Origin: Eledone cirrhosa
Lineage: Eukaryota
Length of the DNA stretch: 64,000 bases
NCBI GenBank assembly: GCA_964016885.1
Contig: OZ024742.1
Location: forward strand, 125,488,001 to 125,552,000
Direction: 5' to 3'
In this document: one piece after another, positions 42,123-43,308 of the stretch
Layout: each line of letters opens with the position of its first letter
Numbering within the stretch: position 1 is the first letter of the stretch
Translations under genes and position numbers: made by a program
The notes under the pieces: generated by a model
The model's database searches: none
Seen by the model: only the letters and a program-made list of their open reading frames with translations
What the model was told of the DNA's origin: nothing

Positions 42123-43308
42123 ATAAAAACAAATAACGAAACGAAATTAAATTTCGTTTCGCTTCTAACTCACTTTTGTATGACTGACGCTTAAACAATT
42201 AAGTTAAAGTGTACATCTACATATGTATACGGAAGTATTAGTATGCATATAAATACACACATGTATACATATGTACATGTACTCAGCTTTTCACTAGACA
42301 CTTTACAGTGAGTGTCAGCTAGTCTGTATGTAACCACACAGGCGGACCGGGTTTTAGAGTCATACGAGTTTTCAAGGAAAGACATTTCCTCTATTCTCCA
42401 GAGGGCCAGACAGGAATATTGGACTAGTTTCGATGTTATTACATCTCATCAGCAATATTTACCCATCTTCCGGCTTCTCTGGAGAATTGTAAAAGCACAT
42501 ATCGTTATATGCTTTTTCTATGAAAATTAGTAGTGGGTAGACTAATTTGCATAGAACGTGAGTCATTGTACGCACCGGTTCAGCGGAAACGATAAAAACA
42601 AATAACGAAACGAAATTAAATTTCGTTTCGCTTCTAACTCACTTTTGTATGACTGACGCTTAAACAATTAAGTTAAAGTGTACATCTACATATGTATACG
42701 GAAGTATTAGTATGCATATAAATACGCACATGTATACATATGTACATGTACTCAGCTTTTCACTAGACACTTTACAGTGAGTGTCAGCTAGTCTGTATGT
42801 AACCACACAGGCGGACCGGGTTTTAGAGTCATACGAGTTTTCAAGGAAACACATTTCCTCTATTCTCCAGAGGGCCAGACAGGAATATTGGACTAGTTTC
42901 GATGTTATTACATCTCATCAGCAATATTTACCCATCTTCCGGCTTCTCTGGAGAATTGTAAAAGCACATATCGTTATATGCTTTTTCTATGAAAATTAGT
43001 AGTGGGTAGACTAATTTGCATAGAACGTGAGACATTGTACGCACCGGTTCAGCGGAAACGATAAAAACAAATAACGAAACGAAATTAAATTTCGCCCTCT
43101 GGAGAATAGAGGAAATGTGTTTCCTTGAAAACTCGTATGACTCTAAAACCCGGTCCGCCTGTGTGGTTACATACAGACTAGCTGACACTCACTGTAAAGT
43201 GTCTAGTGAAAAGCTGAGTACATGTACATATGTATACATGTGTGTATTTATATGCATACTAATACTTCCGTATACATATGTAGATGTACACTTTAACTTA
43301 ATTGTTTA
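42123..43308 (-). mobile_element. Diverged family F array: two 469-bp monomers plus 34 bp, then an inverted 214-bp segment (43095-43308)
   Basis: Monomer starts at 42123, 42592 and 43061, homologous to the 27023 array. The inverted part is the reverse complement of ~42660-42873. Confidence 0.92.
42415..42459 (-). ncRNA. Minimal type I hammerhead, GUC triplet (second copy at 42884-42928)
   Basis: AATATTG-CTGATGA-GATGT-aata-ACATC-GAAA-CTAG-TC-CAATATT. Confidence 0.93.

Follow-up and report, generated by a model that had tools for sequence, protein, structure and literature searches.

Introduction

Metazoan non-LTR retrozymes have been described by Cervera & de la Pena (2020; PMC7229834), and retrozymes have since been linked to Penelope-like elements (PLEs) in a preprint by Li, Clavereau & Pollet (bioRxiv 10.64898/2026.07.22.740005), which also reports in vitro cleavage by only one of nine Xenopus retrozymes. 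According to a further account, animal retrozymes show no motif that would point to a partner (PMC7761336). On the side of the PLEs, a purified PLE protein, predicted to be a dimer, cuts and extends both target strands and starts at two internal sites that bound a short tail, the hammerhead being dispensable to insertion in vitro (PMC11167929). The one-sided position of the PLE tail is already known qualitatively (PMC8557442, PMC3846280), and the way in which inverted arms with such a tail are built has been called unresolved (PMC8557442, PMC11167929).

The window analysed here is a stretch of 64,000 nucleotides from Eledone cirrhosa (contig OZ024742.1, positions 125,488,001 to 125,552,000 of the forward strand), to which all coordinates below refer. 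The repeat that it holds at 42123–43308 is a non-LTR retrozyme, an element of a known kind, whose family of non-coding hammerhead-bearing mobile elements is young and abundant. It resembles the metazoan retrozymes in its non-coding tandem units, its type I hammerhead with a weak palindromic stem III, its low GC content and its stable self-paired fold, as well as in its thousands of copies, its several families of variable length and its co-occurrence with PLEs. The unit is longer than the 170–400 nt quoted for invertebrate retrozymes and falls within the 51–972 bp given in the preprint. The accessible portions of the retrozyme descriptions contain neither two-armed insertions, nor two start sites, nor targeting of (TA)n (PMC7229834; bioRxiv 10.64898/2026.07.22.740005). 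The class itself being known, it is the rule governing the insertion ends that we consider worth following, as thousands of near-identical young insertions yield a countable rule that ties the retrozyme to PLE enzymology.

The insertion and its hammerhead

The family-B insertion (42123–43308) consists of a left arm that begins at start site 1 and an inverted right arm that begins at start site 2. The left arm (42123–43094) comprises 2.07 units of 469 bp on the minus strand, which is the RNA sense: unit 1 (42123–42591, 469 bp), unit 2 (42592–43060, 469 bp), which differs from unit 1 at 3 positions, and a partial third unit (43061–43094, unit positions 1–34) that stops at the inversion junction. 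The inverted arm (43094–43308, plus strand), overlooked in the sequence-only reading on which this work follows up, spans unit positions 70–284 and is devoid of the tail, which on the minus strand occupies 42123–42197 between the two start sites (unit position 1 and positions 69–76) and contains a hairpin at 42137–42161. The insertion lies within a (TA)n target, which flanks it at 42038–42122 on the left and at 43309–45016 on the right; a short pLTR stump of the PLE at 50763–59691 is found at about 43465–43545, adjoining the insertion.

A sister array of family A (27023–33119, minus strand) is a separate insertion with 89% identity to B, consisting of 13 units in a single arm that begins at site 1 and having a GC content of about 36%. 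Its right flank (33127–34100) derives from part of the 3' UTR of another PLE group, from which it follows that array A inserted in a TA tract of the UTR; fragments of this UTR likewise occur in loci L199, L201 and L214. The alignment of A and B bears out the differences first noted between the arrays: it contains 52 substitutions, and its 12 gap columns form 6 runs (+6/−6). The period is 469 bp in both arrays, although array A also includes one period of 468 and one of 470. No ORF of at least 100 aa lies entirely within array A or B, and the unit is devoid of the RT plus GIY-YIG ORF by which an autonomous PLE is recognized. An octamer-like ATGCAAAT (42545–42552, minus strand) sits in a hairpin that is kept in A/B and C, and of which family A of the window carries a variant with the pairing retained; an snRNA-type promoter role, as in newt satellite 2, was considered for this octamer, but a literature search on it returned nothing relevant.

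A hammerhead is present in each tandem unit, with two motifs in B and 13 in A. Motif 1 of copy B (42415–42459, minus strand) is a type I hammerhead in which the C at 42422 is predicted to precede the cut; in motif 2 (42884–42928, minus strand) the C at 42891 takes this place, which puts the two predicted cuts 469 nt apart. The stems in B measure 7 bp (I), 5 bp (II) and 2 bp (III, with the palindromic ACUAGU), and the motif is beyond chance. Rfam yields an HH9 match with an E-value of 8.5e-6, which is below the gathering score, and at gathering thresholds there is no match anywhere in the window; microRNA-family matches at the E-value level were rejected, as they stem from a purine-pyrimidine hairpin and lie far below gathering. 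As had been read from the letters alone, A and B have the same core and the same stems I (7 bp) and III (2 bp), with the cleavage triplet differing (GUU in A, GUC in B). The compensatory change proposed for stem II is real in that one U-A pair has flipped to A-U, but according to the tree this flip occurred once, within the A-like clade, and is not a difference between A and B. Around the hammerhead an extended stem (42393–42487, minus strand) is closed by an 11-bp flanking helix (42393–42403 with 42477–42487), which is perfect in B as claimed; A, however, also forms this stem on the RNA strand by means of two G-U pairs, so that the A/B differences there amount to one-sided changes. A minimal hammerhead-like string is found in two copies (12100 and 15013, minus strand) within a long (TA)n field.

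Copy number and related families

The A/B hammerhead pattern has 9,585 matches in the 3-Gb genome and the C/D pattern 14,019, with 0 in the control in each case, and near-identical copies are spread over many contigs. Hammerhead patterns with other spacings proved to be indel variants, members of family C/D or chance-like matches. Family C/D can be aligned to A/B over the entire unit, with about 60% identity. The basal G-C pair is missing from its stem II, and its periods vary over 434–586 bp owing to an internal (TA)n tract. Its cleavage triplet is GUA or GUU, and within a long hairpin the C/D units (L161–L190, L221–L240) carry a (TA)n target of their own. Taken across the families, these are short (434–586 bp), non-coding, low-GC, dispersed tandem units, as expected of retrozymes. 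The longest arrays reach 31 units; in the arrays L067–L068 and L072 (31 and 15 units) the variants recur every 2–3 units, which suggests later DNA-level expansion or oligomeric templates.

Conservation of RNA structure

Structure-preserving evolution is shown here on the hammerhead strand. In circular form this strand folds at −152/−154 kcal/mol (z −11) and the opposite strand at −115/−139 kcal/mol (z −4, −9), with 40 shuffles each; family C gives −152 versus −118 kcal/mol antisense, so that the hammerhead strand has the better fold in A, B and C, and the monomer has the stable self-paired fold (z about −11) typical of retrozymes. The changes between A and B break 6 and 6 pairs, compared with 15.7 and 15.1 in simulation (337 and 247 runs, minimum 6), the null being a two-lineage simulation that was chosen because a simpler null is biased in making the changes of the folded lineage look unpaired. 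Among 17 A/B sequences, 7 of 152 consensus pairs carry two-sided changes, and a hand count of minority changes gave 24 G-U against 11 A-C.

The covariation that had been claimed from the A/B pair alone does not rise above chance level, with 1–2 two-sided changes against about 0.9–1.0 expected. In a wider comparison, of 15 sequences selected from 98 distinct hammerhead domains of A/B/C/D, 6 of the 14 hammerhead pairs have undergone two-sided changes, with a score of 0.43 versus at most 0.11 in slid controls, and the covariation score exceeds that of all 500 shuffles. The number of two-sided pairs did not exceed the shuffles (298/500), and five of the six changes fall on one branch, that between A/B and C/D; stems I and II covary between these families, which are about 60% identical. 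Automatic mapping of helices from B to C recovered 6/18, and 5/16 on the antisense, and did not discriminate between the strands. Selection on RNA structure, as originally proposed, is therefore supported by strand-specific folding, the few broken pairs and the covariation between A/B and C/D, and not by the two-sided changes of the A/B pair; the passage through RNA that these data support is retrotransposition, as distinct from RNA-to-RNA replication.

Two fixed start sites and their one-each use

The insertions were drawn from position-ordered loci from the start of contig C1, from loci returned by a search with B and from 20 end-blind loci returned by a search with A. Of 70 outer ends, 68 fall at unit position 1 or at positions 69–76, and 64 of these adjoin TA; instead of LTR ends, the retrozyme has ends that are fixed at sites within the tandem unit. 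Site 2 lies about 70 nt from site 1, and the tail between them measures 60–75 nt, as compared with the 30–40 nt given for PLEs. In every scorable two-armed insertion one end is at site 1 and the other at site 2, in 25/25 cases (27 two-armed) and again in 16/16 cases of a second set (18 two-armed), which gives 41/41 pooled among 45 two-armed insertions; the other 4 have one end off-site, and in none of the 45 is the same site used twice. Family C/D conforms in 7/7 scorable cases among 12 two-strand loci. Where the PLE literature calls the corresponding use "optional", the retrozyme follows it in 41/41, and no published statement of a strict one-each rule was found in a search that lay outside most subscription literature, including the older Penelope reviews. 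The arm that begins at site 1 is the longer in 28/41, and single-arm insertions start mostly at site 1, from which we conclude that priming at one site is not equivalent to priming at the other.

The retrozyme thus bears the insertion signature of PLEs: it shares with the endonuclease-bearing members the tandem and inverted arms, the one-ended tail, the AT-rich or microsatellite targets and the two internal start sites, and differs from PLEs in having no ORF and in having whole-monomer arrays in both arms. Target duplications of 11–13 nt, counting 1–3 bases common to the element end, are seen in 11/51 two-armed insertions, with 35/51 being unreadable within pure TA and 5 showing longer matches in repeats; where present they exceed 4 bp, as is the case for retrozymes, and they may be set against the 8–10 bp reported for endonuclease-bearing PLEs, the retrozyme figure including the shared bases. 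At the inversion junctions, an overlap of at least 2 nt is found in 18/45 (null 17%, with BLAST overlaps that may contain mismatches), extra bases in 18/45, some of them derived from the next unit, and a palindrome in 1/45. The cDNA stops are scattered along the unit, and with 2/72 near the hammerhead cut they are not enriched there. Subfamily variants are present in both arms in 7/17 B insertions; in L078, L083 and L093 some variants are restricted to units of a single arm, and the long arrays L067/68 and L072 are mosaic, which together suggest that DNA-level expansion or multimeric templates contribute.

In L1 twin priming a single RNA serves as template for cDNA primed from both target strands, the cDNAs are joined in inverted orientation, and the second primer anneals at a variable internal site. 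The retrozyme departs from this in having two fixed sites and two arms that may each exceed one unit length.

A model of insertion and the alternatives to it

We consider it probable that this non-LTR retrozyme is copied from RNA into (TA)n by the RT-endonuclease of a PLE, through twin priming at one site each. The array would be transcribed, self-cleave to the monomer and be circularized, steps that are suggested by membership in the retrozyme class; a PLE protein dimer would then make a cut in (TA)n with a stagger of about 12 nt, each 3' target end would prime cDNA on the same RNA, one per start site, both cDNAs would circle the template for variable distances, and the two cDNA ends would be joined by microhomology-type end joining. 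One-each site use together with the one-sided tail suggests that a dimeric enzyme carries out twin priming on a single RNA, and the one-each rule excludes independent site choice by two RNAs, unless the subunits are intrinsically different. More tentatively, and with rather less confidence than we place in the general reading, a dimeric RT-endonuclease may grip one RNA, probably circular, by its 60–75-nt tail, cut (TA)n with a stagger of 12 nt and prime both strands simultaneously, one at each of the tail edges; two rolling-circle cDNAs would then be joined by their ends. If true, the dimer model makes a strict rule of the "optional" one-sided tail, the retrozymes record a missing step of Penelope-type integration, and a protein-free substrate of 469 nt becomes available for reconstitution.

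The most serious alternative, which we nevertheless regard as unlikely, retains the same element and enzyme and takes as template an uncleaved linear multimer from the donor array, with the hammerhead and circles being incidental. It accords with the finding that PLE insertion in vitro needs no hammerhead cleavage (PMC11167929) and with the sharing of variants by one arm only or in mosaic form, and the indifference of the cDNA stops to the cut site fits circle and multimer equally. What speaks against a multimeric template is that the core and stems have been kept, with compensated changes, across families of about 60% identity, that 6 insertions carry subfamily variants in all covering units of both arms, as a monomer bottleneck predicts, and that arrays extend up to 31 units.

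Less likely again, and in our judgement improbable, is a single priming event, after which the inverted arm and the one-sided tail would arise by fold-back self-priming or by endonuclease resolution. Both routes have precedent in the PLE literature, self-priming with junction palindromes having been proposed (PMC3846280) and the tail having been ascribed "most likely" to endonuclease resolution (PMC8557442), and single priming likewise predicts a tail at one end. Fold-back, however, predicts palindromic junctions, of which only the one mentioned above is seen in 45; both arms may hold many units (7 and 13 in L085/86), and both ends match the type of start site shown for reverse transcription in vitro (PMC11167929). 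For these elements the one-each rule also speaks against fold-back priming; endonuclease resolution is compatible with the data. The remaining alternative, an ordinary satellite or DNA-level repeat in which paired changes arise without an RNA step, by correction of DNA hairpins, draws on the plus-strand hairpins that also form (z −4 to −9) and on the DNA-level homogenization of long arrays, but is made very improbable by the strand-specific folding with its G-U excess, the intact hammerhead core, and the fixed starts, random far ends and duplications that are as in autonomous PLEs.

Monomer length

The equal length of the A and B monomers is a coincidence, and exact size is not under selection; under twin priming by a PLE enzyme, monomer length would be free to drift. 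The length comparison covers 15 clusters with 100 distinct A/B units of full length, a sample partly biased to the best matches of A and B. The cluster representatives range over 461–469 bp, with single arrays up to 470; 469 bp occurs in 4 of the 15 clusters, namely three of B type and the window's own family A, which is the only one of 11 A-like clusters at that length (the remaining 10 being 463–468 bp) and which attains it through an A-run that is longer by 3 nt. Five or six indels of the observed sizes would sum to zero by chance with a probability of 6–12%. This spread among A/B clusters, the chance cancelling of indels and the 434–586 bp of C/D together lead us to conclude that exact size is not selected. 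The sequence-only reading, which had suggested selection on monomer size, had itself named a broad spread of lengths as telling against it, and such a spread is what C/D displays. That selection holds the monomer at 469 nt, through size-constrained RNA replication or packaging, is accordingly hard to credit: A and B do share this length despite 5–6 indels, and the A/B lineages are confined to 463–470 bp, but 10/11 A-like clusters differ from it, A arrives at it by way of the poly-A extension (+3), a net of zero is not rare by chance at 6–12%, and C/D varies over 434–586 bp with growth of its internal (TA)n.

Penelope-like elements in the window and the search for a partner

Besides the retrozymes, the window contains two LINEs and three elements of PLE type. 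The first of the latter, at 50763–59691 (ends approximate, minus strand), is of autonomous type, with RT and GIY-YIG frames in tandem that are broken by stops. A hammerhead-like motif is present in its direct and inverted pLTRs, its tail is at a single end, and it has 3,368 end matches genome-wide with (TA)n as target. In this family a tail of 47–61 nt is found at one end in 8/9 inverted pairs, in addition to the window copy, and duplications of 13–14 nt are seen in 4 pairs. The element is built as tandem plus inverted copies, with a CxxC linker, an asparagine-rich insert and no Pfam match, and both of its start sites fall within codons 1–30 of the ORF. We detected no sequence similarity between this PLE and the retrozyme, the architecture being common to both, and on architecture only the element is a candidate for the partner type.

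In contrast to PLE-linked retrozymes, as described in the preprint, a pLTR homologous to the retrozyme was not found here, among 30 of 10,596 GIY-YIG candidates and 4 PLE copies (window, L066); the GIY-YIG loci examined are mostly members of a single PLE group that has a CxxC linker, and they carry no retrozyme-like pLTR. A further abundant PLE (L066:4580–7300 and L091; 10,073 end matches) has a hammerhead of its own, with a long stem II and a palindromic stem III. Lying beside two retrozyme insertions, it was considered as a partner and rejected, as it has the TA target in common with them but no homology; its adjacency is probably due to chance. No tail was found in PLEs of this type in 30 loci.

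The other two PLE-type elements of the window, both on the minus strand, are broken: that at 22440–26029 is related to the 50763–59691 element, and that at 6225–8803 is of the L066 type. The LINE-type ORFs, at 17420–20914 and 47649–50581 on the plus strand, encode apurinic endonuclease and RT domains.
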